Below, piece by piece: positions 5,746-23,739 of a stretch of 64,000 nucleotides of DNA. The DNA comes from a virus. Position numbers and translations under genes: made by a program. The stretch's first letter is position 1, and every line of letters begins with the position of its first letter. The notes under the pieces were generated by a model. That model had not been told where the DNA came from. It did not search any database and saw only the letters and a program-made list of their open reading frames with translations. Location of the stretch: the UHGV virus genome UHGV-1351772; one strand, written 5' to 3'.

Positions 5746-7845
5746 TTACTCAATGATAGTCGCGGCCACCGTATTGTCGTATAACGACGCCGGACGTTTA
5801 CGTGACGTGTAGAAACGCACGTTGTCCAGGTTTTTCTGTTGGCCTTCGAATAACAACATCGGTACAGCTGAACGCATCGCAATCAACGTGTTGTGATCCT
5901 CGAAACGTTTGCCATCCATCACATCAGCATCTTCACTATCAAACCCAACCGCCGGGAAAGGATTGGTCGGTGATTCAACGCGTGATATCGCCAGCATAAT
6001 CGCGATGTGTGTCATCGGAATACCACCGAGCTTACGTTGGATATATTTAAACACATCAAATAACGCGTGCGTACATTGTTTCTCCGTAGCACCGCGCATC
6101 TGAACCAGTGTCGTTGGTTTTACCTTACCTGACTTCTTGCTCAAACGCATTGAGTCATCAGAGAACTGTTCGAAAGTATCCGATTTATCAGACGCAACCG
6201 AACGAAGTTTCAATTCTAACCCTGCTACAAACTCCGCCATAGATTCAGACCGATTCGTATAAATTAGTATCGGCCAACTCGGTTTCCATCCTTTCAGGGG
6301 AATCCGTACCAGCTTCTTCGACGGGAAGGTAATGTTATCGCGCTGTTTCAGGAAGAAATGTAAGAAGGCTTTCGAGAAGTTACCACAAACCCCCATACGG
6401 ACGTCAATGGGATCTTCGGCCAACACATTCCCAGCTTCATCCAACCGCAAAAAGGTCAGTTCGTTAATCTCCGGCAATGCCGTTTCGTCGATCACTTCCA
6501 AATCATCGTGATACGCGATTTGGCTGATTTCAGAATAGACTTCATCGGAAATAACGAGTTGGTATTCATCCCAATTACCGTACTGCGGTTTCTCCCGTAA
6601 ACTCAATCCTTTTACGGAGTTGTGTTTATACTCACCAAGATAATCCCGCATTCTTGGAGTCAGCACCAGATTCAGCAGATAGCGTAAGAAGTCCAGGTGT
6701 TTCGTTGAGAGAATCCCCTGTGTACCCTTTTCAGATATCGAGGTTGAGGCCAAGTGGCCTGGTGACGTTCCCGGCGAAAGGTTATAAATCAAATCACCCA
6801 TGCAGGTTGCACAAATGCTTTGACGCGCCATCCCCTTACAACACATCGCGGTACGAAACTCAATAGGTTTGCCTAAGACTTTCTCAAACTCCCCTTTCTC
6901 GAATCGTAACCACGGGCCACCCACACCTTCAAAACGATAACGCATTCCCACCATCGCATCGTACTTCTTACGCTCCAGTTTACTTTCTGTAAACGTGTGG
7001 CGATGAACGTGATGTGTACCACAATCGTCGTATTCGAAATACATTAACACGTTGGCTGCTAACTGTAGCTTACGTGACGCATATTCCGCATCGGCGATTT
7101 TATCGGTATTATACAGGTGAGTACGTGACGTCGCTCCCGCTTCTTTCAGACGGCTAATTACAGAATGTAGACCCGTAAAGAAACCTTCCCATACCTGGTT
7201 GGAATAAACGCGAGAATCAATCTCTGATGTTTTCCCACGTATATACGCCTGAAGAACCTGGTTCATTTTGATGGTCTTATCCAAGACCGACATCACCACA
7301 GGGTTTAAACGAAGTTGTGGGTCTTTGAAGATATCTTCGATAAGAAGATACGCTTCTTCGATCATATCCCGACCTTCTTCGTCGTACCCAGTAGGATACA
7401 TTTGTGCCCACTGATGAATCTGCGTAAAATTTCGGTGTTGGTAAATTTCCATCATCGTATCGTAGTCAATCGTGACGCAATACGACAACAGATTTTTCAC
7501 CGATAAGTTAAACGCATCCGCATAGACGTGCTGCTGCAATAAATAGCGGGTATCTGCTAAATCCACACCCGCTTTACGTGCTGCCACAGCTGCCAATGAC
7601 ATAAACTTCAGATGTGCGTCATCTGTAGCGGTGTCGCCATGTTTATACGCCATTTGCGAACTGATTGGGATCTGCGGATAAAATCGTGTTAGCCCCCAAT
7701 AAGGCCAACTGATTTTAATGTGGCGTCCTGACATGTTTAAGGTTATCCCGTCATCGAACGTCACTTCATATCTGCCGCGCAATAGCCACACCTGATCCGA
7801 GTTCAGTTTACACAGATCACGCACGTGAACTGGAGTGCCCTTCAT
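5746..7845 (-). CDS. multisubunit RNA polymerase beta-prime subunit, C-terminal fragment (set A)
   Basis: SISEKGTQGILSTKHL matches the conserved beta-prime block AAQSIGEPGTQLTMRTFH; start overlaps the stop of the upstream beta gene (ATGA). Confidence 0.6.
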   Translation of the reverse strand: MKGTPVHVRDLCKLNSDQVWLLRGRYEVTFDDGITLNMSGRHIKISWPYWGLTRFYPQIPISSQMAYKHGDTATDDAHLKFMSLAAVAARKAGVDLADTRYLLQQHVYADAFNLSVKNLLSYCVTIDYDTMMEIYQHRNFTQIHQWAQMYPTGYDEEGRDMIEEAYLLIEDIFKDPQLRLNPVVMSVLDKTIKMNQVLQAYIRGKTSEIDSRVYSNQVWEGFFTGLHSVISRLKEAGATSRTHLYNTDKIADAEYASRKLQLAANVLMYFEYDDCGTHHVHRHTFTESKLERKKYDAMVGMRYRFEGVGGPWLRFEKGEFEKVLGKPIEFRTAMCCKGMARQSICATCMGDLIYNLSPGTSPGHLASTSISEKGTQGILSTKHLDFLRYLLNLVLTPRMRDYLGEYKHNSVKGLSLREKPQYGNWDEYQLVISDEVYSEISQIAYHDDLEVIDETALPEINELTFLRLDEAGNVLAEDPIDVRMGVCGNFSKAFLHFFLKQRDNITFPSKKLVRIPLKGWKPSWPILIYTNRSESMAEFVAGLELKLRSVASDKSDTFEQFSDDSMRLSKKSGKVKPTTLVQMRGATEKQCTHALFDVFKYIQRKLGGIPMTHIAIMLAISRVESPTNPFPAVGFDSEDADVMDGKRFEDHNTLIAMRSAVPMLLFEGQQKNLDNVRFYTSRKRPASLYDNTVAATIIE

Positions 7846-10082
7846 TATTCATCGCCCCTTTTCATTTTCACCAATTCAAACCCTTCACAGCTGTGAATGT
7901 TTTTCATCATCCTGTCAATCTGTGAATCCCCTAACGGGAATTTATTTCGGTCTACCAGTGGACCCGGATTAGACGGGGTTTGAGATCGATAAAGCCCTAC
8001 TAAAATCTCACGATGCACCGCAGGGTTATTTGCCCTGTCGTGAACTTCTTCGTAGTTACCTGGACCATAACCCGCTAACAGTCGTTCTTCCGAAGGACCA
8101 GCCCATTTTAGCGTTTTATAGTTTATCGGATACGAACCGCGGCCTTGGTTAGACGCGTCTATCGTACCCAGATAATTCAGATACATTGACGAGATACTGG
8201 AAAACTCACGACCTGTTTTATCCAGACGTAATGTTTCCACACCACCTACGTAAAACTCATTTTTTGTCCATTCCTGTTTACCATCGAAATTAGTAATCAG
8301 GAGTTTGGATTTACGCGGTTTAAATTCACCCAACCGTTCACTGATATCGACTGGCGTGTCGTCAAGTTCATGTGGTAAGTAAATACGGATTGTAAAATCG
8401 TAAATCTCTTTGAAAAGTTCGCGTTGTAAATCCTCCGTAGGATGCGTTGCCTGTAGTGTATTGGCCCATTCTGGATTATAGCGTGATAGATAATCCATCA
8501 GGATTTCCCAGCTCTCGCTGATACGTCCTTCATCCAGCAATGGTTTGAGACGCATTTTCAACTGTTCAGACGCAGCTGACCAATACATGTGGAATAATGC
8601 TGCATAAGTCGAGCGACGAATTACAGCGTTCATCGAACGTAAAACGTGAACACGTTCACCGAATTCGTTAATCGGCATCTGTTCAACGGGTAATACACGT
8701 CCAACAATCCCTTTCGTACCCGAGCGGTCGGTAATCTTAGACGACACCGTTACCGGGATCGGATAACGAACAGCAATACGAATGGTATACGTGTTGATGG
8801 GATCGCTGAGTCCACGTTGTACTGGCGAGGTCAACTTAGAAAGAATCTGCTGACTGACATTTTCTTTACCGTATTCACCACGACGAATTGCTTCATCAAT
8901 CACCACGCGTATCTCTTCACGAAACTCGTGATAGACCTCGTACGTTTCAGAAGCGAACGCTTTTTCCAACAACACACACGCTTTCGGCGACCAGATAATA
9001 TTTTTGTCACGGGACATCGAGAAATAGAATCGTACGATGGCATTGTAATAGTCTTTCAATGCTAATGCGTATTTATCCAGTTCTCGTTTGTTCTCTTCGG
9101 TACAAGAAATATTGTTAGCACCATTCGCGCAAGACGTTTCATCACGCCACACCTGGATATCGACGATACGTGTACCGCTACGCTCCATCAGTTCTTTGTC
9201 GCCTGCAAGACGTGCTTTATAATGGACGGGATCGGCATCCACATATTCGCAACTATCAAAGAACGGAGAGACGTGTTGAGTTTCCCCAAGCGACGCATCA
9301 ATTGCACCGTAAAGCTCATCGAAACGACGCGATGCAATGACCAACCCATCGTCACGAATAGCCTCTCCTACATCCGGGAAATACCGTGGGACGCGATTAC
9401 CGTTCGGATCGATGTAACCGTAAGTATCCAGTAAAAACTCGTCTTCACGTAGCGTCTTTTCAACGATTTTCAAACCATAACCGTGGAGTTTTTGGGCGGC
9501 GTACTCAGAGATGGTGTAAGAATCCTCGATGATATCAGAATGCGAAATCGTAACGGTTGGTAGCACGACGCTATCGGCGTACTCGCCTTCCACCATACAC
9601 GACATCGTTGTAAGGATTTCATCCTTTTCCAACTGATCGGTTTCGCCACGTAAAATACTACGCAGTTTCATCGACTCACGTTTCTCAGATGAGAAGATGT
9701 TGTCGTGGTTAGTATAGAAGTTAATCTCTAGCACATCTATCATGGTTTTACCGCCCTTCATTTCTGCACGGCGGAAGAAGATAGCATGTTCTAACGCTTT
9801 AGAATCCCCACGACGACCATAACGTGTAAACGTCGCGCGGCGCTGACGACCGTCTTTGGTCATATAGTGGCAGATGCTACCGGGATCTTCTACAACGTCG
9901 TTGAACAGAAAATCGTGGTAGTTTATATCTGCCCCTGTAAAATGCGGCGATGGTTCAGGATTGTCGATAGGGACCGCAGACTTCATATGGTTGCCTACCA
10001 TCGATGCCCTTGCACCTGATACTTCGGTGATATTAATCTCACGGTCAGCCACACTGCTCATTAGCTCTACTGGCGTTTTCAT
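7845..10082 (-). CDS. multisubunit RNA polymerase beta subunit, C-terminal fragment (set A)
   Basis: KITDRSGTKGIVGRVLPVEQMP aligns with bacterial beta [24 protein letters not shown] (K..R.G.KG.......P.E.MP conserved). Confidence 0.7.
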   Translation of the reverse strand: MKTPVELMSSVADREINITEVSGARASMVGNHMKSAVPIDNPEPSPHFTGADINYHDFLFNDVVEDPGSICHYMTKDGRQRRATFTRYGRRGDSKALEHAIFFRRAEMKGGKTMIDVLEINFYTNHDNIFSSEKRESMKLRSILRGETDQLEKDEILTTMSCMVEGEYADSVVLPTVTISHSDIIEDSYTISEYAAQKLHGYGLKIVEKTLREDEFLLDTYGYIDPNGNRVPRYFPDVGEAIRDDGLVIASRRFDELYGAIDASLGETQHVSPFFDSCEYVDADPVHYKARLAGDKELMERSGTRIVDIQVWRDETSCANGANNISCTEENKRELDKYALALKDYYNAIVRFYFSMSRDKNIIWSPKACVLLEKAFASETYEVYHEFREEIRVVIDEAIRRGEYGKENVSQQILSKLTSPVQRGLSDPINTYTIRIAVRYPIPVTVSSKITDRSGTKGIVGRVLPVEQMPINEFGERVHVLRSMNAVIRRSTYAALFHMYWSAASEQLKMRLKPLLDEGRISESWEILMDYLSRYNPEWANTLQATHPTEDLQRELFKEIYDFTIRIYLPHELDDTPVDISERLGEFKPRKSKLLITNFDGKQEWTKNEFYVGGVETLRLDKTGREFSSISSMYLNYLGTIDASNQGRGSYPINYKTLKWAGPSEERLLAGYGPGNYEEVHDRANNPAVHREILVGLYRSQTPSNPGPLVDRNKFPLGDSQIDRMMKNIHSCEGFELVKMKRGDE

Positions 10083-10145: not shown

Positions 10146-10469
10146 ATGTTAGACAATTTTATTACCCTAGAAGAATTCATACCTGCGCCTTACACCACGA
10201 CGTGGAAAGTGATGCACGATTACACAGACTATCTGCGTAAACACCCGAAAACTAAAATAGAAAATGTTGACCCACGCTACAGTTGGCCTGAGGTCCACAA
10301 TTTCTACGCCTACTGTAAACTCAAAGGTTACGCCGATATCATTATCTATCCGATGATGCTATTAAACGGGCTAGAAGACCCCATGAATTTCACCCCTGAA
10401 ATCACGCAACTAATCGTACCCGACGTCGGAACGGTTAGTGAGATTATTAGCACCATCGGTAATGATTAA
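10146..10469 (+). CDS. hypothetical protein (107 aa)
   Basis: Plus-strand ORF starting 10 bp after the promoter motif and ending at a bidirectional terminator. Confidence 0.5.
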   Translation: MLDNFITLEEFIPAPYTTTWKVMHDYTDYLRKHPKTKIENVDPRYSWPEVHNFYAYCKLKGYADIIIYPMMLLNGLEDPMNFTPEITQLIVPDVGTVSEIISTIGND

Positions 10470-10506: not shown

Positions 10507-11886
10507 TTAGCGCGTAAATGGCGAAGTTGCAAATCCACCGAAGCTGCTTTGCGGCTGTCCGCCAAAACTGCTATTCGTTGCAAATGCTGAACTCGTGCTA
10601 AACGCGCTAGTCCCTCCTACGTTCCCGCTAAAAGAATTATTCCCTCCGCCAAAGGTACTTGCCAAAGAACCTCCGGTATTCCCTACACCGAAGTTACTCT
10701 GACCACCGAAAGGTGACACCTTGCGCTCTCCACCAAACGCATCCACAACAGAAATTCGACTTACCATACCGTTGGCAGGGTTAGTTGTTCCGTGCTGCTC
10801 GGCGTAACGTTGCATCGCTGGCGTCAAATTCCCATAAGGACTATGCGTGGCCATGTTACGTTCACGTGCGCGGAAGAATTCCATCGGATCGGACTTATCT
10901 GCTTTATCTGCATCCGATGCACGTTTTTGTGGAATCTGCTGTGGTGCCTGTGCACGATCAATACGGAAATCATGCGCCGTGGTATCACGTTCAGGGCTGT
11001 CAGAACGTGGGCCGGTGTTATACGGTAAGGTCTGAATGACGTTATCGTAAATATCCATATTGTCCAGCTGAGAAATCCATTCATCTTCCAACGGACGTAA
11101 AGAAGTGTGGTCGCGCAATCCCTTAACGACGTTGTTATAGTTCACAACGTACTGCGCCCAACCACGCGCTAAGCAACCGAAATACGGACGCGAATCATTA
11201 GACCCCGTTACGCTCGGATACCAACCGAACACGGTGGTCAATAAACGATGGATAATGATTTTGTCTTGTTTACGTTGAAGCTTCGCAGAGAAGTACATTG
11301 CAGTACCATCTAACGATTCTTCTTCGAACATATTCCGATAATTAGCTACACGGTTAAACTTCACGCCGTCGATAACTAAATCAGACGCAATAAAAAGCTG
11401 GGTGATCTTGTGCTTTTTATCTTTTTCCAATTGTGCATAAACGAACGCCTTAACCGCTTCCCAGGATTTTACCAAACGTTCATCGAACGTCGGATCTTTC
11501 ATCCCTTCGCAAATCTGTTCTGTTAAGAATTTCTTGTAGGATGCAGAACGTACTGCTTTACCACTTGCCCCCGTTTCCAGAATCGCGTCGATTAATGCAA
11601 AGGAACGAATGAACAGGTTCGCATTAATGGATTTCTTCAGGAAACGAATTGTACCTGATTCACCTGCCAGTACCGATTCACACAGCGGATGAAATGCCTG
11701 ACATTCACGACCATCGTCGTCTTCCATGCCACGCTTAATCATCGCTGGGGTGGGAAGCGCCAAACGGCGCTTCACTTTGTTATACGTAAACTCTGCCGGT
11801 TCACCACCGTCACGAGTGAGTAAATCGTTTTCAAAATCGAATCCTTGTGATTTAAGAAACGATTTGTAGAATTCAATAATTTTCAT
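10507..11886 (-). CDS. hypothetical protein with ~85-aa Gly/Ser/Phe-rich (FG-repeat-like) C-terminal tail
   Basis: 459-aa ORF; C-terminus AFGG..PFGG..NFGVG..TFGGG..SFSG..SFGG..SFGGF is low-complexity and FG-rich. Confidence 0.6.
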   Translation of the reverse strand: MKIIEFYKSFLKSQGFDFENDLLTRDGGEPAEFTYNKVKRRLALPTPAMIKRGMEDDDGRECQAFHPLCESVLAGESGTIRFLKKSINANLFIRSFALIDAILETGASGKAVRSASYKKFLTEQICEGMKDPTFDERLVKSWEAVKAFVYAQLEKDKKHKITQLFIASDLVIDGVKFNRVANYRNMFEEESLDGTAMYFSAKLQRKQDKIIIHRLLTTVFGWYPSVTGSNDSRPYFGCLARGWAQYVVNYNNVVKGLRDHTSLRPLEDEWISQLDNMDIYDNVIQTLPYNTGPRSDSPERDTTAHDFRIDRAQAPQQIPQKRASDADKADKSDPMEFFRARERNMATHSPYGNLTPAMQRYAEQHGTTNPANGMVSRISVVDAFGGERKVSPFGGQSNFGVGNTGGSLASTFGGGNNSFSGNVGGTSAFSTSSAFATNSSFGGQPQSSFGGFATSPFTR

Positions 11887-11908
11887 TTAAGAGTCCTTGA
11901 TTAATCTT

Positions 11909-13615
11909 TTACTCGCCGAATGCACCAAAACCAGACACTGGCGCAGGAGTTGACATATCGCTGCCGCCAAAGCTACCGAAGCTACCCAGGCTCGTAGGTG
12001 CAGACACAGGGGCAGTTGGAATATTCGACAGGATATTCGAACGGTTCTGACCACGGTTGAATTCTTGGTACCCTTCTTCCACTTTATTCATCAGCTGCGC
12101 TGTTTCTGCAGCTAACTGGTTCGTGTACTGAAGGTCAGTTGTTGTACCACAATGCAGACGTGCTTTCATGAACGACGCATGAGTATAATACTCAGGCAGC
12201 TCACCATCGATTTCAATTTCAATACGTGAAACCACCCCGACGATACATGTTACGGTCATCTTACAACGAATACGGTTGTGTTTAGTCACTTGCAAGAATA
12301 CGCCTTGTAAGTCACTTAAGAAGCGACGCGCTAACACATCCGGTAATCCGTCTTCAGTTAATGCCCCAACGTTGTGTTTTGACACTTGCAGCAGAGGAGG
12401 TGTTGCAATATCCGCCATACGGTTATCGTAGAAGAAAGTCACTTCACCGATAAGGTTACGAGTGACCACAGGCCCCAGTAACATGGCTAAATCAAATGCC
12501 ACCAACGAACCCTGAGTAGAATAGTTATTACGTCCTACCCAATCATCGGTGCGTTCAATTTCACCAAAACCACGACGAGCCGCGACAGCCAGCGAGTGCG
12601 CAATTGCAGCGTCCACGTCTTCGGGATTAATCACCGCATTACGCAAGTCGCACAGTTTGAATGCTGCACGGTTCGCAACGTTCCAACCGCTAGTCATATC
12701 GGACGTGGCGTTGGATATGGCTGTTCTAAAAGCCTTCACCAACTCGTAACTGTTGAAATTACGCATCACACCGATCTGGCTAAGTTCAGATTCTACCCCA
12801 AGAGAATGATCTCCTGCGAAGAAACTGTCTACTGCGCTCAACTCCGTTTCAATCCCCATGGTATTAATGAAGGAATTGGAGATCGCTGTCACGAAAGATT
12901 CTGGTCGGGTTAATTGACTAGACATCAACTGTGGCGCACGCTGGCAATTAGCGGAGATAACGGTGTTGTTATCCAGCTCAATCTGCTCACCAGCTTTCAC
13001 CACTTTACGTACCATATCAGCTGCTTTCGCGGTAGAAATAACGTCAATGGTGTGCTCTACATAGCTGTCTGCGGTTAATGTCTTGGACAACACATAGTTG
13101 TCTATCAAACGGAAGGAATCCGGGTTGATACGACGTCCACCGAACGCATCAGTGATATACGTACATTGTAACCCGTATATTTCGTTGATATACAGAACCA
13201 TGTCGTCCGGCAGGTGATTAAACATGGATCGCTCTGCCTGGGACGTATACCCGGAAACAACATAACGCGTTTCCTGAGTCCGTGTGTCGTTTAACGAGTT
13301 CGAAACAATAATCGCCACGAAGTTATACACACCAGTATCGCGAGAATTATACGCAAATTGGATTGGTTGCGATTCGTTATCACTCACGTTAATGAATGGA
13401 CGTTCAATGCCTGTTGGGGTATTGTCGAAACCCACAATCTGCCCCAGGGCTTCTTGATAAGCCCGAGAACCTGTTGCTTTATCACCGTGTTCTGCAACCA
13501 CATCCACTAACTCATCCAAAGCGTGCTGCGATTCAAAGAACCCAATACGACGACGAATCTGCTCTGGGATTTCGTACACTGGATACATTTGTAGTTTCAA
13601 AAGTTTCATTGCCAT
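11909..13615 (-). CDS. hypothetical protein with FG-rich C-terminal tail
   Basis: 568-aa ORF ending ...SLGSFGSFGGSDMSTPAPVSGFGAFGE; adjacent to and co-directional with the previous FG-tail gene. Confidence 0.6.
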   Translation of the reverse strand: MAMKLLKLQMYPVYEIPEQIRRRIGFFESQHALDELVDVVAEHGDKATGSRAYQEALGQIVGFDNTPTGIERPFINVSDNESQPIQFAYNSRDTGVYNFVAIIVSNSLNDTRTQETRYVVSGYTSQAERSMFNHLPDDMVLYINEIYGLQCTYITDAFGGRRINPDSFRLIDNYVLSKTLTADSYVEHTIDVISTAKAADMVRKVVKAGEQIELDNNTVISANCQRAPQLMSSQLTRPESFVTAISNSFINTMGIETELSAVDSFFAGDHSLGVESELSQIGVMRNFNSYELVKAFRTAISNATSDMTSGWNVANRAAFKLCDLRNAVINPEDVDAAIAHSLAVAARRGFGEIERTDDWVGRNNYSTQGSLVAFDLAMLLGPVVTRNLIGEVTFFYDNRMADIATPPLLQVSKHNVGALTEDGLPDVLARRFLSDLQGVFLQVTKHNRIRCKMTVTCIVGVVSRIEIEIDGELPEYYTHASFMKARLHCGTTTDLQYTNQLAAETAQLMNKVEEGYQEFNRGQNRSNILSNIPTAPVSAPTSLGSFGSFGGSDMSTPAPVSGFGAFGE

Positions 13616-13645: not shown

Positions 13646-15358
13646 TTATTGATTAAACCATGCTACTTCTTCGCATTTCTTTCTGTTTTGAATTAACAGA
13701 AATTCTGCTAACATGTTCTGAAGTCGCGGATGAGGTGAATAGTCCAACATCACTGTCCCACACCGTAACATTCTGGCTGCTTCCGGTGTTGCCCTGAGAT
13801 TGAAGTTGAACGGTGCAATATGTTCACGAACCAACAAGCTGAGAGAATCCTTCAATGTTGATTGTTCGTAAGTATTACGATGCTTACGGTATGCTTGTGG
13901 ATAATATCTATCCGTTTTTATTTTAATCTCATTATCGATTGGCTCGATAGGATACCCGCCATTTAGCGGTGCCCGGATCATTTCACAACTTAACAACTGT
14001 GCAATCTCAGGCATTCCGTAATAGATGTAAACGGCTTGGGATATACCCATCGCGTTCTTAAACGCTTCTGCGTCGATTTCCTTGTATGTACGACGATCTG
14101 CAAATCGGTGCATCACTGCCGCCACCAACCATTCGTAGAGTTCGTAGAAAGGATATTGATGGTTAATGTTGATGGAATCTATCAACACTTTCACATCAGC
14201 GGGAGCAATATCGAGATTCAAAGCACGCACCGCACGACGATAGTCATTAAAGAATTCTTGAGTACGAACGAATTCCTTCATTGGTGCTTTAGTCCGAGCT
14301 TGAACCAGGTCAATCGACGAAGTTTTCCCCTTCTCGCCGTTGAACATGATTTTCTCAGGATTCGCTTTTAGCATCACGTTTTGACCGGAAATTTTTCCCG
14401 CGAAGCCCGTTTCAATTTCTTGCCGAATATTGAAATACATCCCCGCCACGATGTTGTTTTCAACCATCGTACCTGGTGGTAGTTCGGCACCGATTAACTT
14501 CATCGCAATTAAACGGATAACGGCGAACGCTATGATGTATTCCTCTACCATATCCGTACCGTAGCCGCAGATAGATGCCAGGACGGTAAGGTTTGCAGTA
14601 TTAGGTCCTTTACTCCCCCCGTCCTGAACTTTCGAAATCACCGACACTAAAAACTCACGCAACTTTGTAATGGCTGGCAGTGTAGCAATCTCGGTATCAG
14701 ACAACAGTTCCATGCAGTAGGTCAGGTTATAAACACTTTTGCGCTTCGACTCAACAGAAGCACGTGTTGCAGGAAAAGCGTCCAAAATCAAGAATACGGG
14801 AATAAACGGTTTTGTCATCAAAGACAAAATCACCAATTCGTAATAATCTTGTACGATATACGTCATCTCTTTTGGATAATTCGACGACATCTCTTCGTAC
14901 GTTTCGTGGACGTTTTGAGGAATCCACACCGAACCGTGTGGATAAAGCTGGCGGAATCTATCTGCGTGATGAAATTTAGCAATTCTCGCGACGAGCGTGG
15001 GGACGTGTTCACGAATAACTTCTGGGGGTTCATTAGCTAACAACTCTAATTCTTCGTAAACTGAAAACAGTTCGCTTTTCTCTTCAGGTGTTAAAGTTGA
15101 CCAATAACGCTCGATTTCCATGAACATGATTTTATCGTGCGTTACGATCTGTCCGAAACTATCGCGTACGTCTGGCACATTCACGTCTTTACGTCCATTT
15201 CGGAAACCATTAAACGCGACCTCTTTTTCGCCGTACTTTATCACTAAACGGTCACGATTCTTTTCAATGCGCATTTTAAAATCTCCAGGAATAACATAGT
15301 CGTCCACTAAGATAAAATCTATCTCAGATAACTTCGACTGTATTCTACACACATACAC
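13646..15358 (-). CDS. hypothetical protein (570 aa)
   Basis: Long minus-strand ORF in operon context; no motif recognised. Confidence 0.55.
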   Translation of the reverse strand: MYVCRIQSKLSEIDFILVDDYVIPGDFKMRIEKNRDRLVIKYGEKEVAFNGFRNGRKDVNVPDVRDSFGQIVTHDKIMFMEIERYWSTLTPEEKSELFSVYEELELLANEPPEVIREHVPTLVARIAKFHHADRFRQLYPHGSVWIPQNVHETYEEMSSNYPKEMTYIVQDYYELVILSLMTKPFIPVFLILDAFPATRASVESKRKSVYNLTYCMELLSDTEIATLPAITKLREFLVSVISKVQDGGSKGPNTANLTVLASICGYGTDMVEEYIIAFAVIRLIAMKLIGAELPPGTMVENNIVAGMYFNIRQEIETGFAGKISGQNVMLKANPEKIMFNGEKGKTSSIDLVQARTKAPMKEFVRTQEFFNDYRRAVRALNLDIAPADVKVLIDSININHQYPFYELYEWLVAAVMHRFADRRTYKEIDAEAFKNAMGISQAVYIYYGMPEIAQLLSCEMIRAPLNGGYPIEPIDNEIKIKTDRYYPQAYRKHRNTYEQSTLKDSLSLLVREHIAPFNFNLRATPEAARMLRCGTVMLDYSPHPRLQNMLAEFLLIQNRKKCEEVAWFNQ

Positions 15359-15407: not shown

Positions 15408-16052
15408 TTAGATAATATCGTCAAAATCGTTAGTTGGTGTTGGGGCTTTTGCAGCAGATTGGTTGTTATAACCTCCGCCGTTGCCGCCGTTATTGTAACC
15501 GCCGCGACCGTAACTACCACCACCCGCATTATTAAACTCACGCGGTTTGTAGTTGTCACGGAAATCTTCCAGGAATACATCCGCATTTTTCAGGAACGCG
15601 CGTAGCTGACGCTCTGCCAGTTCCAGATCGGAGACCAGTTGTCCATTACGGAAAACACGATAACCTTTCGGATAAGTGAAATAGAATTTCTTCTGACGCG
15701 CACCAACCCCTGGGATCTCGCCGCTCAGTGCAAAGAACGGTGTCAGATTTTCATCACGACCTACGTGTAAGCTAACCGGTGCCTTCTTACCTTTTGTATC
15801 TTCCCATTTGAAAACAACTTTTTCGGGTTTCTGCATCACCGTACGCAGGGTTTCAAAGATATCAACACAGACAGTATAACCTGCGGTGAAATAAAGACCT
15901 TCGCCTTTACCAAAGGAATAGTGGAATTTCATCAGTTCCACATCACCATTGAACTCGTTCAATTCAATGCCCAGTTTACGAGTACGGCCCTGTTGATCCG
16001 GCTCAGTCTGCGGGTAAAGCCATTTCTCTTTAAGGAAGTTTTTATTGACCAT
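15408..16052 (-). CDS. single-stranded DNA-binding protein-like (Gly-rich linker plus acidic DFDDII tip)
   Basis: C-terminus GGGSYGRGGYNNGGNGGGYNN...TNDFDDII mirrors the bacterial SSB Gly-rich linker and acidic tip (E. coli SSB ends MDFDDDIPF). Confidence 0.5.
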   Translation of the reverse strand: MVNKNFLKEKWLYPQTEPDQQGRTRKLGIELNEFNGDVELMKFHYSFGKGEGLYFTAGYTVCVDIFETLRTVMQKPEKVVFKWEDTKGKKAPVSLHVGRDENLTPFFALSGEIPGVGARQKKFYFTYPKGYRVFRNGQLVSDLELAERQLRAFLKNADVFLEDFRDNYKPREFNNAGGGSYGRGGYNNGGNGGGYNNQSAAKAPTPTNDFDDII

Positions 16053-19207: not shown

Positions 19208-19795
19208 TTAACACGAAGCGCCGAGTTCAGAACACGGATCTTCGTCTTCCCAATCAAAACTCCGCATACGTGCCCAGTTGATTTGCATGTCAACTTGCTC
19301 TACACGCGTGAGTTTGTTGGATCGATCTTCGTTGGATACCCAGTTCCAAATACGATCTTCATCGTACTCGTTGGACATACCCGACGTTACTTCGCGGAAG
19401 TTATCGTCCGTATGCATATACGCCGAACCACGGAAGTTATCGATTTTCGAATACCCGTTCTCGTAACCGGTCGCCATGTTGTTATTGTACAATTGTCGAT
19501 ATTCCGGCAACGCCATTAGCAACGGCTGTAAGGTTGCGTTTGCAAACTGGAATTGTCCTATCTTCTCCAATTGTCGTACAACGTCAGTCGCATCGCTGTG
19601 CTGTACTTTGCGTGCGGCTGCATACATCTCGCGGAAACGCTCTAATGAAATTAACTCATTACATTTTCGTTTAACGCTTTCGATCATGTCAGGAGCAAAG
19701 GCGTTAATATCGAAATTGTCTCTGAAATAGCGATACATCCCGCTATTTTCAGTTTGTCGCGTCCAGATGGTTCCGCCTAAGTTCCACATGCCCAT
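19208..19795 (-). CDS. hypothetical protein (195 aa)
   Basis: Minus-strand ORF between a terminator and the RNAP exon. Confidence 0.5.
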   Translation of the reverse strand: MGMWNLGGTIWTRQTENSGMYRYFRDNFDINAFAPDMIESVKRKCNELISLERFREMYAAARKVQHSDATDVVRQLEKIGQFQFANATLQPLLMALPEYRQLYNNNMATGYENGYSKIDNFRGSAYMHTDDNFREVTSGMSNEYDEDRIWNWVSNEDRSNKLTRVEQVDMQINWARMRSFDWEDEDPCSELGASC

Positions 19796-19801
19796 GTTTC
19801 A

Positions 19802-20086
19802 TTACCCCGCCAATTTTAATAATTCCGAGTCAAGCGCGATACCGGCTTCCAAGTCCTCTTCAGTATCCTGGAAGAAACTGTTTATGTTGCTGATATTCTC
19901 GTTATGGAGAATCATGCAACTCGAAACCTCGTCCACATTCGTGCTTGACATAAACCCGTTGTCTGGGCGATAAGCCATGCCCAGTTCCATTTCAATCTGG
20001 TCGATTGCCAATCTACATTGTAACTGGTCGCCATCGAAATCCTGTTTGTCCACTCCATTCCTTTTGGAGCAGGTGTGCAATGACAC
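19802..20086 (-). CDS. RNA polymerase beta-prime catalytic segment (DFDGDQ), probable exon 2 of the beta-prime N-terminal gene
   Basis: Translation begins VSLHTCSKRNGVDKQDFDGDQLQ, matching the universal NADFDGDQ Mg-binding motif; listed start is GTG and an in-frame TGA lies 5 codons upstream, so it is unlikely to be an independent gene. Confidence 0.5.
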   Translation of the reverse strand: MSLHTCSKRNGVDKQDFDGDQLQCRLAIDQIEMELGMAYRPDNGFMSSTNVDEVSSCMILHNENISNINSFFQDTEEDLEAGIALDSELLKLAG

Positions 20087-20445
20087 CCTCCCATGCTTTC
20101 ACATGGGCACAGACTATATCATAACCGTAGGTATTGCTACCCGTAGGTCTCCCCCACTTCGCCGCTAAACTAAGCAGCTACTCTACTCGGTTTTACCCTT
20201 TCGATAGTCGTTGAACGATTTTCATCGCTGCTGGTTATCCATTATCACAACCCTTAGCATTATTGGTTAGCATAGGTTATCTTACGAATTGTTTCTGACT
20301 TTCGCCACCCTGTCGGGATCGTAAGCTTTAGGGGTTTCCAGCAATTCGAGGGATACGCACTAGAGGTTTCCCGTCTAGTGGGCCAGTGTTTAGCATTAGG
20401 TGCTTTGATGACGCGATCAGAAATACGCAGAGAACATTGTGTTAC
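20084..20445 (-). other. group I self-splicing intron (ORF-less), boundaries approximate (+/- 20 nt)
   Basis: Minus-strand core elements in canonical order: P aattgctggaaa (20335..20346), Q aaccagcagc (20227..20236), R gttcaacgacta (20205..20216), S atgatatagtct (20111..20122), P9 hairpin cccatg-tgaaag-catggg (20090..20107), with a G before the exon-2 frame. Confidence 0.65.
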
Positions 20446-21759
20446 ATCTGTCAGTACCGCTGAGATGAACAATGTCTGAATAGAAAGTTGAACCAATGTT
20501 GGGTTACGCAGAACTTCCAACATTAAGCCGAATCCGCCGGGGGATTCTTTAATCAACTCATTAATAATTTCATGTACCAACGGTACATACTGCATTGCCG
20601 CAAATGCAATGATGCGCTCACATTGTCGAGGTGTATAATCACGTCGACCTAACTTGTTCTCAATGTGAACACTCGCCAACGGAACCAACCAACGCCAAGG
20701 CGCAATAACTTTCAACGCATCATGAGGTTCAGAGATAGGAGAGATAGTCACACGTCCGCCCCACGGTACGTGTGTTGACCCGAGTTTTGCCCGATAGAAC
20801 CCAGGTTTACCTTCCATCACTTCCTGACGATGGTCAATATAGAAATACGCAAGCTGTCGATTCGCTTTGATCGCACGACGAATAATAAATCGTGGTTCGA
20901 TACGGCGTGCATTCGTGTACAACAACGCCACATTTTTTACTGCGTCGATAGCGCTGGTATAAACCGGATCGATAAAAATACCTTGTCGGCGCTCCTCCGT
21001 AACGATCAGTTTTGATGAAATAATCGGAAGGTGTCTTGGAAAGAATGAGAACGATTGTTCCTGAAAGAACTCACGCCATTCTAAGCGCACGCGCTCACTC
21101 TCATAACGGTTATTTTTCGTTGGTGGATAAATCTCCTTCCAAGCTTCCGGAGACGTAAGGATATTAAAGACGGTTCGATGGTGGTCGATAAAGTTTCGAA
21201 TTCCCCGTTCGAAGCCATGTTCGCCGAGTATTCTTTTCACCACGCGAGCACGTGTTCCCTCGTCCTTTTCTGGATGGTAGTACGGATCGATTAGCCACAG
21301 CAGTAAATCAGACCCGCGTTCTACCGTCACTTTGTTACGATTAAATTTTTTCAGCTTAGAGCCAAAGAAGGCATTAAAGAGAGACCAAAAACGTGGATTG
21401 ATAAAGTTACCCATCTCATCGGGAGCGCGTAACCAGACATCAGACGTAATCCGATGTTCAGAAACAACATGTCCGCAATGTGGGCAACGAAGCCCAAGAT
21501 TATAACGATGGGTAATAGGTGATTCGCAGGTCAGACTGCAAATAGGAGCCGAGTTGAGTGTTTCATCAACGATTCGGTTTTGGAGTATTTGGTTAATCAT
21601 CTCCGACGCTTCGATGGTATCCATCGTTGCAGCAACGTCATTGATAATAATCGGTGGTTTGTAGCCTTTTTCCTCCGCTTCTTGTATACAGTCACGTAAC
21701 ATCTTGTCGTGACTAATTAGTCGCCCCGAAATCCCGTAATATTCTAGTTTATGTTCCAC
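20260..21759 (-). CDS. multisubunit RNA polymerase beta-prime subunit, N-terminal part (set A), exon 1; last ~55 codons are probably intron read-through
   Basis: Cys cluster CSLTCES...CPHCGH (zinc ribbon), GKPGFYRAKLGSTHVPWGGRVTISPI matching [27 protein letters not shown], and VLRNPTLVQLSIQTLF matching VLLNRAPTLHRLGIQAF; homology stops ~25 codons before the expected NADFDGD. Confidence 0.6.
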   Translation of the reverse strand: MEHKLEYYGISGRLISHDKMLRDCIQEAEEKGYKPPIIINDVAATMDTIEASEMINQILQNRIVDETLNSAPICSLTCESPITHRYNLGLRCPHCGHVVSEHRITSDVWLRAPDEMGNFINPRFWSLFNAFFGSKLKKFNRNKVTVERGSDLLLWLIDPYYHPEKDEGTRARVVKRILGEHGFERGIRNFIDHHRTVFNILTSPEAWKEIYPPTKNNRYESERVRLEWREFFQEQSFSFFPRHLPIISSKLIVTEERRQGIFIDPVYTSAIDAVKNVALLYTNARRIEPRFIIRRAIKANRQLAYFYIDHRQEVMEGKPGFYRAKLGSTHVPWGGRVTISPISEPHDALKVIAPWRWLVPLASVHIENKLGRRDYTPRQCERIIAFAAMQYVPLVHEIINELIKESPGGFGLMLEVLRNPTLVQLSIQTLFISAVLTDVTQCSLRISDRVIKAPNAKHWPTRRETSSAYPSNCWKPLKLTIPTGWRKSETIRKITYANQ

Positions 21760-21770
21760 GCCGAATCCTC

Positions 21771-21814
21771 AACAAAAAAAGAGAGGGAAGGGACAGGGGG
21801 TTTTCCCCTGTCCC
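21771..21814 (-). terminator. strong intrinsic terminator
   Basis: gggacagggg-(g)tttt-cccctgtccc hairpin followed on the minus strand by CTCTCTTTTTTTGTT, directly after the stop of the 615-aa gene. Confidence 0.7.
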
Positions 21815-21843
21815 TCAACTACTGCTTACTACTTACCAACTTA

Positions 21844-23691
21844 TTAGAAAGTCGGACGCCAGTCAGTTGCAGCGAAGGACATACCGAAATCGCTACCAAA
21901 TGCGTTAGGACCGCTACCAGACAGCGCGAAGTTCTCATTACCCGTGTTAACAAACACAGAGTGAGTGAGGCTGTTCGCTGCGGTAACACCATTCACCTGG
22001 AAGTTGCAGTTTTCAGTAATGTATTCCACCAGTGCTTTACCAAACAGCGGATTGATCGCCAGGTCAGACGCTTCACCCGTTACCTGCGGCTGTTTGCTAC
22101 CGAACATGGACGCAGCCATTTTCAGCAGGTACAGACGCTGGTCACGCGCATTCAGATAGCGGTGAGAGTAGGACTGTGCACTGATGTAGTCGATCGCATC
22201 GCGTTGGTTATCACCCACTTTAGTCAGAGCGGAAACCAAGTCCATATCCTGGAAGCTGCGTTTCTGGCTGTTGCTGAAATACTGACCAGAGATGGTCGGG
22301 CAACCGGCAATAACAACGTGTTTGCACTCGAAGTTGGTGACATTGCCCAGCAGTGCTTTGAAGCGAGTGCTGAACTTAGTCGCGCCGTTGCTGGCCATGT
22401 TATCCAGGATATTGAACAGGGTGTACAGTGCGTTGGTGTTACCCATCCCGATTTCGCTCAGGAGAGTAGACAGGCCACCGATACCGTTACCTGCACGATG
22501 GTTCACCACCAGGGCCGCAGTCGGGTTAGCGAAGGTGTCCAGGCATTTCTCGATAACTTCACGGTTACCGTCGATTTTGCTCAGGTCAGGTTTTTCGCTG
22601 CCCCATTCTACATACTCCAGAACGCGGGAGAAGCGGCGATCGGTTTTGTTCAGCGACTGCATGAAACGTTCACGCCAGCCACCAATAGTGGCGATTTGTG
22701 CGAACGCGGCCAGTTCAATCAGCTGACGCTCGATAGGTGCCATTGCCCCAGAGGACTGAGAATCCATCAGGGAAACAACCACTTCGGCTTCCAGCTGACG
22801 CAGGTCCTGAGTACCGTTAGTCAGGGTTTGAGGTTTACCTTTATGGCGGAGGTTGATGTAACCAACACCTGCAACGCTCGGATAATTCTGGAGGCGTTCA
22901 GAAGAGAACAGCGTCGGGTTATTATCGTTGTTGCCAGTGCGAGTGTGGTCAACCACAACCATCAGGTCAGCACGTTGTGCAGAACCGTTAACGTCAGTTA
23001 CAGAACCTTCTTCAACTACGCTGACTTGCGCGGTGAAGCGATCAGAACGGGTCATTTTCAGGTAGCCCAGGTAGCCGGAATGACGACCGAAGATACCCAA
23101 TGCAATCTGGCCCATGAGCTGGTTAGCCCATTCTTCGTTCATGGTTTTACCCAGTTCCGGTACGCAGTTCATTACCATGAACTGTACGCTTGGCAGATTG
23201 TGCTGAGTTGCAATCTGGTTAGTGATGTTGTTCATCACACCTTCTTGACTGAACAGCTGCGCCAGGGTGTAGTAGTTTTCTTTACCGTTGATTTCGTAGA
23301 AACGGATGGACTGGCCATGTTCAAAGAACAGGATACCATAGAGCCATTCGTTATGGTTATCGCCGGACGGACCAGCCACGTATGCAGCAGAACCCATTTC
23401 AGAGTTGATGCCGTCAATAACACCCCAACGGAAGTTACGCAGGTATGTGTTCTTCTCCGCCATCTTCTCAATCAGGCTAGTGAACTGAGAAGCAGTGGAC
23501 ACGAAAGACATGTATCCGAAAGCTTTATCGAAAGTAGAGATGTTTTTAGACATCCCACCAAAAGCGTTGGCCGCATTGGTATTATCCACAGTAGCAGCTC
23601 CCGCGCCACCGAAAGACGGAATTGGATCTGCAGCGGAACCAGCAGCACCAGTCACAACGTCGTTTTGATTGTCAATAAACTCTTTAGCCAT
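21844..23691 (-). CDS. abundant 615-aa protein: candidate chimallin (phage-nucleus shell protein); alternative is major capsid protein
   Basis: Strong optimal-codon bias (ggt, cgt, ctg, aac, ttc), two tandem promoter motifs upstream and a strong terminator downstream; ~67 kDa with Gly/Ala/Ser-rich N- and C-terminal segments; directly upstream of the beta-prime N gene, as chimallin is in phiKZ (recalled synteny). Confidence 0.45.
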   Translation of the reverse strand: MAKEFIDNQNDVVTGAAGSAADPIPSFGGAGAATVDNTNAANAFGGMSKNISTFDKAFGYMSFVSTASQFTSLIEKMAEKNTYLRNFRWGVIDGINSEMGSAAYVAGPSGDNHNEWLYGILFFEHGQSIRFYEINGKENYYTLAQLFSQEGVMNNITNQIATQHNLPSVQFMVMNCVPELGKTMNEEWANQLMGQIALGIFGRHSGYLGYLKMTRSDRFTAQVSVVEEGSVTDVNGSAQRADLMVVVDHTRTGNNDNNPTLFSSERLQNYPSVAGVGYINLRHKGKPQTLTNGTQDLRQLEAEVVVSLMDSQSSGAMAPIERQLIELAAFAQIATIGGWRERFMQSLNKTDRRFSRVLEYVEWGSEKPDLSKIDGNREVIEKCLDTFANPTAALVVNHRAGNGIGGLSTLLSEIGMGNTNALYTLFNILDNMASNGATKFSTRFKALLGNVTNFECKHVVIAGCPTISGQYFSNSQKRSFQDMDLVSALTKVGDNQRDAIDYISAQSYSHRYLNARDQRLYLLKMAASMFGSKQPQVTGEASDLAINPLFGKALVEYITENCNFQVNGVTAANSLTHSVFVNTGNENFALSGSGPNAFGSDFGMSFAATDWRPTF

Positions 23692-23739
23692 TTTACTTAA
23701 TCCTTATAAGGTTTAATACAATTGTAGTGTTGGTTCACG

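Follow-up and report, generated by a model that had tools for sequence, protein, structure and literature searches.

The 64-kb window analysed here, part of the phage genome UHGV-1351772, comes from a phiKZ-like nucleus-forming jumbo phage and carries two adjacent genes whose products end in disordered tails with repeated Phe-Gly (FG) dipeptides. Judged by profile matches and gene order, the 568-amino-acid (aa) protein is the ortholog of PicA/Imp1 (phiKZ gp69), which homologs indicate to be a protein importer of the phage nucleus, and the 459-aa protein is orthologous to phiKZ gp70 and PhiPA3 gp64, members of a family that appears shell-associated and non-virion from data on homologs. FG is the flavour of one lineage; the conserved property is a disordered tail, the flavour of which is matched between PicA and gp70 and, more weakly, appears matched to the termini of the shell protein chimallin (ChmA). 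From these sequence patterns we infer that matched tails may tether and co-assemble import proteins at the chimallin shell, a proposal to which, with the binding and localisation role it implies, we give an even chance. Both proteins are new members of known families, and their tails point to an undescribed attachment of the importer to the shell.

Two tailed proteins and their families

The two genes and their tails occupy the following positions:

11909..13615, minus strand: PicA/Imp1 ortholog, 568 aa (phrog_3141, E = 1.9e-127, full length)
11912..12025, minus strand: disordered FG tail of PicA, approximately residues 531 to 568, ...SLGSFGSFGGSDMSTPAPVSGFGAFGE (4 FG; predicted local distance difference test [pLDDT] <50)
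10507..11886, minus strand: protein of the phiKZ gp70/PhiPA3 gp64 family, 459 aa (phrog_3520, E = 3.4e-124; BLASTP to PhiPA3 gp64, E = 1e-18)
10510..11019, minus strand: disordered C-terminal half of the gp70 homolog, approximately residues 290 to 459 (pLDDT <50 nearly throughout)
10510..10761, minus strand: FG-rich part of the gp70 homolog, residues 376 to 459 (6 FG, 11 Phe)

The sequence-only reading of this DNA had described two open reading frames (ORFs) of 459 and 568 codons with unrelated globular parts and FG-rich disordered ends. Both ORFs are present, their globular parts belong to separate PHROGs (3520 and 3141, respectively) with different AlphaFold2 (AF2) folds, and the tails contain six and four FG dipeptides, as had been counted, at a pLDDT of <50. 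In the 459-aa protein, the C-terminal 84 residues include 11 Phe and are composed of 21% Gly, 20% Ser, and 13% Phe with six charged residues; sequence entropy drops in this tail from about 3.7 to 2.7 to 2.9 bits. The 568-aa protein has four FG dipeptides among its C-terminal 40 residues, all of them inside the last 24. Phe precedes Gly more often than when the tails are shuffled (P = 0.011 for the 459-aa protein, P = 0.0004 for the 568-aa protein), and among the approximately 68 putative genes of the window these two alone have at least three FG in any 40-residue stretch. In AF2 models run with family alignments, residues 1 to 529 of PicA are folded and model residues 530 to 567 have a pLDDT of <50; the gp70 homolog reaches 85 to 97 from residue 1 to about 285, and model residues 289 to 458 score below 50 with few exceptions (the reference lacks the start codon, so each model number is one lower than the protein number). 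Both proteins, tails included, occur on several independent contigs at 98 to 100% identity, so the tails are no artefact of sequencing or reading frame.

The 568-aa protein matches phrog_3141 from end to end, as does PhiPA3 gp63 PicA (4e-170), and Goslar gp174 matches it at 1e-46. Its gene has a gp68-like gene on one side and a gp70-like gene on the other, an arrangement seen also in phiKZ, PhiPA3, Goslar, and all further loci checked. A chimallin is encoded in the same genome. A hidden Markov model built mainly from SPN3US-like members finds an ORF at the PicA position in most distant loci. Direct BLASTP comparison with the PicA proteins of PhiPA3 and Goslar was marginal, with a weak colinear motif, and the identity was settled because the PHROG profiles match where BLASTP was weak. 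The protein is only about 16 to 17% identical to the studied PicA of Pseudomonas and E. coli phages, and the ends differ as well, being FG-rich in the window but ...NNVADLGLL in PhiPA3 and ...TTKGNF in Goslar. PicA/Imp1 is the protein importer of the phage nucleus (bioRxiv 10.1101/2024.03.27.586873; PMC11087766). Puncta at the shell and a requirement for selective import have been shown for PicA of phiKZ, PhiPA3, and Goslar; the protein gathers in one or two puncta, and this higher-order assembly is unexplained. Cargo is chosen by folded PicA surfaces, and no class of transport receptors is known (PMC11087766; bioRxiv 10.1101/2024.03.27.586873).

The 459-aa protein shares phrog_3520 with PhiPA3 gp64 and Goslar gp173. 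Members of the family were found in 263 phage records, spread over the sampled chimallivirus lineages, and its gene is directly downstream of PicA in every locus with both genes. Its members have a homologous N-terminal domain of about 290 aa with an FHPLCE motif, in which H65, P66, C68, and E69 are invariant, compared with a total length of 398 to 580 aa; a fold search found no solved relative. Like the 459-aa protein, every member (e.g., phiKZ gp70, PhiPA3 gp64, and 201phi2-1 gp126) has a long disordered C-terminal half, but this half is FG-rich in the window, rich in Met, Gly, Pro, and Gln in PhiPA3 and phiKZ, and rich in Arg and Asp in PCH45-like phages. In PhiPA3, three proteins (gp61, gp63, and gp64) are early products that localise to the nuclear shell and did not turn up in virion proteomes; two of them, gp63 and gp64, co-purify with ChmB/ChmA (PMC10643120). 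phiKZ gp70 is among the listed nuclear proteins. The suggestion of the sequence-only reading that the tailed proteins take part in phage-nucleus transport is thus partly supported, since one is the PicA ortholog and the other the ortholog of shell-associated PhiPA3 gp64.

Tail flavours and their co-variation

Tails were surveyed in 35 PicA-family and 44 gp70-family clusters and also in 45 distinct pairs of proteins from one genome, drawn from viral contigs and from reference phages. A C-terminal tail is present in all PicA and gp70 homologs found, although some distant PicA tails are short and not of low complexity. The tails are therefore neither missing nor, as a feature, unconserved in homologs, the outcome that the sequence-only reading had named as speaking against it. 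FG-rich PicA tails were found in three of the 35 clusters, all from the window's own small clade, and only three gp70 clusters have at least three FG. Tails of phiEaH2/Asesino and SPN3US contain GGLGG-type repeats, those of the Caitlin/ChrisDB/Huxley group repeated (G)NSLLD, and those of the Wellington group GGSLL; CR5, Derbicus, and Phobos have Phe-based NPF or GFSFG motifs, and the tails of phiKZ, PhiPA3, RAY-like phages, OBP, and EL are rich in Met, Gln, Pro, and Gly. The gp70 tails of PCH45, Moabite, RsoM3USA, Ea277G, and several metagenomic clades consist of 60 to 76% Arg, Asp, and Glu. PicA tails in the Arg/Asp-tail clades are 23 to 42% charged. The proposed nucleoporin hallmark accordingly did not hold up: the FG composition is not conserved among homologs, and the tails are far shorter than nucleoporin FG domains.

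A separate observation concerns the mixed-charge Arg/Asp repeat tails themselves (e.g., RDDRRDDRRDRDRDYDRRDRRDRRDRDD, 46 to 76% Arg plus Asp plus Glu), which form the C-terminal 80 to 100 aa of gp70 homologs at the loci L029, L031, L032, L035, L056 (PCH45), L058, L061 (Moabite), and L064.

Despite this diversity, the tails of PicA and gp70 resemble each other within a genome. When each clade was represented once (17 clades with <40% identity), same-genome pairs were more similar than cross-genome pairs on all four measures: P was 5e-5 for the local C-terminal 5-mer score and likewise for composition, 1.5e-4 for the last four residues, and 0.005 for shared 3-mers. Raw tail composition also tracked the globular cores of the same genome (the core controls were significant), so part of the raw composition signal is a genome-wide bias, and the core composition of each genome was therefore subtracted in later tests. 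After subtraction, the PicA and gp70 tails were still correlated, at 0.38 within and 0.08 between genomes (P = 1e-5 with n = 17; a set of n = 27 gave the same result), and core-segment controls were flat (P = 0.27 to 0.87). In a set of 12 lineages the values were 0.59 versus 0.29 (P = 1e-5), with the own partner top-ranked in eight of them, and the last three to five residues of the two proteins matched (P = 0.0005 to 0.002). Examples of matching PicA/gp70 C termini are DLGLL/GLGLL in PhiPA3, NLGLL/GMGLI in 201phi2-1, EDLF/GDLF in the Halocynthia phage, and, at further loci, GFGLI/GFGNI (L025), SRFLI/SRFGI (L024), DSFNF/GGFSF (L014), and RRRI/SRRI (L031). The DNA shared by the two window tails is limited to stretches of 16 to 22 nt with 73 to 88% identity, and recent gene conversion was on that account rejected as the cause of their likeness.

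Within the FG clade, Phe residues are retained selectively. Compared with relatives whose cores are 83 to 93% identical, the gp70 FG tail of the window is 45% identical (core, 93%) and has kept 9 of 11 Phe versus 20 of 55 residues other than Phe and Gly; the PicA tail, compared with an 83%-identical relative, has kept all four Phe versus 15 of 28 other residues. In the pooled data, 13 of 15 Phe and 35 of 83 others are kept (Fisher P = 0.0014): stickers are retained and spacers drift.

The third partner in the comparison is chimallin, the presence of which bears out the expectation of a nucleus-building phage:

21844..23691, minus strand: ChmA ortholog, 615 aa (identity to ASESINO_39 and SPN3US_0022)
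23533..23691, minus strand: ChmA N-tail, ...PIPSFGGAGA...NAFGGMS..., i.e., PSFGG and NAFGG
21847..21921, minus strand: ChmA C-terminal segment, NAFGSDFGMSF...PTF, reading ...PNAFGSDFGMSFAATDWRPTF

The ChmA candidate is 52.7% identical to ASESINO_39 and about 51% identical to SPN3US_0022. GFP-tagged ASESINO_39 (Asesino gp39) surrounds the phage DNA as a nuclear ring (PMC11724907), and the identity of the window protein follows from this ortholog studied by experiment, with SPN3US gp244 as consistent support. Judging from gene order, SPN3US_0022 would correspond to gp244 of Laughlin et al., a diverged chimallin of SPN3US. The candidate misses Pfam Chimallin_Phikzvirus (PF25677), falls into a different PHROG from that of PhiPA3 ChmA, and has no sequence match in the PDB; tblastn with PhiPA3 ChmA gave no match in the window. 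Two side observations concern this gene. The SPN3US numbering is inverted, i.e., RefSeq ACQ60_gp244 is apparently chimallin (GenBank 0022) and the GenBank gp244 of Thomas et al. is a 240-aa subunit of the virion RNA polymerase; when mapped by gene order, the label SPN3US gp244 denotes two different proteins in the literature. Antisense to ChmA, a stop-free ORF of 649 aa (21751..23700, plus strand) is almost certainly spurious, and a caller that prefers the longest ORF takes it over ChmA.

ChmA assembles by flexible terminal segments (the N-tail, the N-terminal segment NTS, and the C-terminal segments CTS1 and CTS2) that dock into neighbouring protomers (PMC9365700). These segments are extended peptides on flexible linkers, and those of the window phage contain (A/S)FG motifs like the ones in the tails. 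The Leu-type sister lineages have APLGG... (PLGG) in the ChmA N-tail; in PCH45 both ChmA termini are Arg/Asp-rich, as is the gp70 tail, and in 201phi2-1 the ChmA N-tail is Gln/Pro-rich, again as is the gp70 tail. In Goslar, ChmA, PicA, and gp70 all end in N-x-F. The ChmA end matches the tails in some lineages (e.g., SSFNF/DSFNF/GGFSF), whereas ChmA of PhiPA3 and 201phi2-1 ends in ...GFY and ...SFY, respectively, unlike the ...LGLL end shared by PicA and gp70. In background-corrected tests with 12 lineages, the last 25 residues of ChmA were correlated with the gp70 tail (0.64 versus 0.42, P = 8e-5; P = 4.9e-4 without PCH45) and with the PicA tail (P = 0.008), as was the ChmA N-tail with the gp70 tail (P = 0.009); four controls were flat.

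Proposed attachment at the shell and competing explanations

The arrangement that we favour would be the following. PicA and gp70 each combine a folded domain with a flexible low-complexity tail, in which hydrophobic stickers (here Phe-Gly) are set in Gly/Ser/Thr/Asn spacers. The tails would serve as attachment and co-assembly modules that hold both proteins at the chimallin lattice by many weak sticker contacts, with a matching C-terminal peptide aiding attachment in many lineages. They may engage the ChmA terminal segments, or the grooves receiving them, as well as each other, and may thereby bring PicA and gp70 together in one or two import puncta. Since the partners would have to stay compatible, the tail flavour would shift in step within one phage, FG being merely the local flavour. 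The proposal draws support from the shell localisation of the homologs, from the unexplained puncta of PicA, and from a precedent in the same gene block, the tail of ChmC/Imp6. All of the tail flavours (aromatic or aliphatic residues with Gly, Gln/Pro/Met-rich, and mixed-charge Arg/Asp) belong to sequence classes that are generally regarded as cohesive.

This precedent, PhiPA3 gp61, is the closest in function: its tail is a low-complexity, low-pLDDT part of a shell-associated protein, drives condensates, and is needed for shell binding (bioRxiv 10.1101/2023.09.22.559000). The ChmC tail is rich in Asn and Gly (and Tyr) with an acidic-hydrophobic end and is stable in make-up across lineages, whereas the PicA and gp70 tails vary, and it works jointly with an RNA-binding Whirly domain. 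The Gly/Ser/Phe-rich window tails have almost no acidic residues and lack the pattern of an N/G-rich stretch with an acidic cluster after it, which is present in the neighbouring ChmC ortholog. The tail and C terminus of ChmC do not co-vary with the PicA or gp70 tails. The extreme C terminus of ChmC reads approximately [FY]-D-[DE]-hydrophobic-hydrophobic across 12 lineages, with PhiPA3 departing from it (GFDDEIPNF), and this acidic-hydrophobic end could be a conserved docking peptide, e.g., for Imp1.

Several observations weigh against tethering by matched tails. phiKZ gp70 co-expressed in E. coli failed to pull down Imp1, which, for phiKZ at least, makes it unlikely that PicA and gp70 form a stable complex by direct contact. 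The link to ChmA is weaker than that between PicA and gp70: the ChmA N-tail was not significantly correlated with the PicA tail (P = 0.6, 12 lineages), and matching at the extreme ChmA C terminus was marginal (P = 0.025 to 0.11). Incorporation of 201phi2-1 ChmA into the shell is unaffected by loss of its N-tail. The permutation tests correct incompletely for shared ancestry, and the SPN3US-like clade holds only about two to three independent Phe/Leu switches; within this clade alone, C-terminus-specific matching was not significant for any pair. In the window lineage, the three proteins end in PTF, FGE, and FTR, with no motif in common. Because of the marginal last-residue match and the failed C-terminus tests in the SPN3US-like clade, the ChmA-tail link, drawn from comparisons of sequence, is suggestive rather than established. 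The nonsignificant tests in this clade are also the reason why genome-specific mimicry of CTS2 is not claimed.

Among the alternatives, a nucleoporin-like barrier comes closest to the original suggestion. The FG tails of PicA and gp70 would fill or line an import channel in the shell, making up a cohesive and selective phase through which a cargo-bound importer can pass. FG-nucleoporin domains resemble the tails in being disordered, poor in charge, rich in Gly, Ser, Thr, and Asn with repeated FG, and tied to a nuclear transport machinery. The tails are borne by the importer itself and a shell-associated neighbour, their uncharged Gly/Ser/Thr/Asn and FG make-up resembles that of cohesive FG domains such as those of GLFG and FxFG nucleoporins, Phe is retained as the spacers diverge, a pattern also known from nucleoporins, and import takes place at one or two puncta. 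On the other hand, the tails have no homology to nucleoporin domains, a fold search found no fold similarity to nucleoporins, and the tails are about 10-fold shorter (4 FG in 38 aa; 6 FG in 84 aa, an FG-rich stretch of about 85 aa). Nucleoporin FG domains typically comprise tens of repeats over hundreds of residues. FG is limited to one small clade and not conserved among orthologs, which presumably have the same function with Leu-Gly, NSLLD, Met/Gln/Pro, or charged Arg/Asp tails; the selection of cargo by folded PicA surfaces, without a known transport-receptor class, also argues against such a barrier. Finally, the nucleoporin barrier is an open pore and that of the phage a closed protein lattice. 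We consider an FG barrier quite improbable; flavours matched across PicA, gp70, and ChmA are better explained by tethering and co-assembly. In a bolder version, which we regard as unlikely, low-complexity ChmA termini might form a brush on the shell, and PicA, gp70, and perhaps ChmC might be held and gated at the import site in a composition-matched cohesive phase, analogous to the FG phase of the nuclear pore but evolved independently. The chemistry (FG, LG, Q/P/M, or R/D) would then be free as long as all partners change jointly, and the clade of the window would have converged on true FG repeats.

The co-variation might also track a common partner other than ChmA that both tails, and perhaps the ChmA termini too, bind by a short linear motif, such as ChmC/Imp6, a ChmB-like hub, RNA, or a host chaperone or protease. 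This explanation is possible but on the unlikely side. The matching extreme C termini suggest one peptide-binding site, PhiPA3 gp63 and gp64 co-purify with ChmB, Imp6 directly binds Imp1, and the Arg-rich tails of some clades could bind RNA. ChmB homologs, however, have been reported in Pseudomonas phages only, whereas the tails are universal; the missing co-variation of ChmC and the failure of phiKZ gp70 to bind Imp1 are likewise unfavourable. Moreover, PhiPA3 and the phiKZ-like kmuB share a host but not the motif, which argues against a host receptor.

That the tails are neutral or entropic linkers, with low-complexity drift by slippage and a same-genome likeness due to mutational or codon bias, appears improbable as well. 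Their fast evolution (45% identity of the gp70 tail versus 93% of the core), the genome-wide composition signal, and short DNA repeats inside the tails speak for such drift. It does not account for a tail-tail correlation that survives background subtraction while core controls vanish, the selective retention of Phe (P = 0.0014), the matching extreme C termini, or the preservation of tails in all 45 distinct genome pairs of a very old family; nor was a gene-conversion tract found. Gly-rich linkers are common in phage structural proteins, and the tails might simply be flexible linkers of ordinary virion components, as the sequence-only reading had also considered. The SPN3US clade lies outside the PhiPA3 virion data; the SPN3US orthologs (putatively gp31 and gp32) go unmentioned in the text of the SPN3US virion study. 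For the PhiPA3 homologs this explanation is contradicted, as they are shell-localised, early, and not detected by virion mass spectrometry (PMC10643120); the genes lie in an early block of ChmA, nonvirion RNA polymerase (nvRNAP), and import genes and in no structural module, and PicA has been functionally shown to be an import factor. A virion role is accordingly extremely improbable.

Gene block and the import question

The closest cultured relatives of the phage are Erwinia phages phiEaH2/Asesino and Salmonella phage SPN3US, with 55 to 72% protein identity. The gene order on the minus strand agrees with phiKZ gp54 to gp74, PhiPA3 gp53 to gp67, and Goslar gp246 to gp171, and runs ChmA, nvRNAP β′ (split by an intron), Imp3, SbcD, ChmC/Imp6, gp68-like, 568-aa, 459-aa, a small reverse-strand gene, and nvRNAP β. 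Apart from ChmA, PicA, and gp70, the following members of the block were assigned:

19208..19795, minus strand: Imp3 ortholog (phiKZ gp59/PhiPA3 gp55; phrog_3254, E = 6e-66, PhiPA3 gp55 in the same family)
15408..16052, minus strand: ChmC/Imp6 ortholog, 214 aa, with a Gly/Asn/Tyr-rich disordered tail (approximately 15411..15557) and the end DFDDII (phrog_3284 common to PhiPA3 gp61; synteny)
13646..15358, minus strand: ortholog of the fifth nvRNAP subunit (phiKZ gp68/PhiPA3 gp62; phrog_3209 common to PhiPA3 gp62; synteny)
7845..10082, minus strand: nvRNAP beta subunit (phiKZ gp71-73 equivalent; Pfam RNA_pol_Rpb2_6; phrog_3295, E = 1e-250)

The function of Imp1 depends on Imp3. Beside ChmA, a group I intron at 20090..20407 (minus strand) splits the nvRNAP beta-prime gene between the ORFs 20260..21759 and 19802..20086 (both minus strand). 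It matches the full model of Rfam RF00028 with 56.9 bits (gathering score, 50; E = 1.5e-13), and the 93-aa ORF downstream of it matches the C-terminal end of the same RNA polymerase family (phrog_2987, positions 418 to 477 of 478). In Goslar, too, a group I intron is annotated, together with an HNH endonuclease gene, directly downstream of the nvRNAP subunit gene that adjoins ChmA. Between gp70 and nvRNAP beta, a 107-aa gene (phrog_3455) is encoded on the opposite strand (10146..10469, plus strand). A small reverse-strand gene occupies this position in most of about 20 chimallivirus loci inspected, but not in EL or LAh10, and a few loci have extra small genes in between; the Moabite counterpart is annotated as a baseplate wedge protein, and the HHpred match is weak (73% probability). 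Elsewhere in the window, a 770-aa protein (25194..27506, minus strand) has a poly-acidic C-terminal tail, ...ERAGDDEEDEDEEEVFDDE.

The tails on PicA and gp70 and their co-variation are not mentioned in the primary PicA/Imp1, interaction-network, and ChmC papers or the recent reviews that were searched; the journal version of the Imp1 study lies outside this survey, so an earlier description is possible. Among the papers searched, none pairs the phage nucleus with FG repeats.

Foremost among the open questions on the phage nucleus is how proteins pass through the closed lattice of chimallin, and PicA/Imp1 is the central import factor. How PicA is anchored at the shell and gathered in one or two puncta are the questions to which the matched tails speak, and gp70, a core gene without assigned function, is nominated as a partner in the import process. 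The co-varying flavours would provide a natural experiment on the co-evolution of low-complexity chemistry between partners. If the more ambitious reading of a composition-matched cohesive phase were true, the tails would represent the counterpart of the nuclear-pore FG phase in a bacterial virus.

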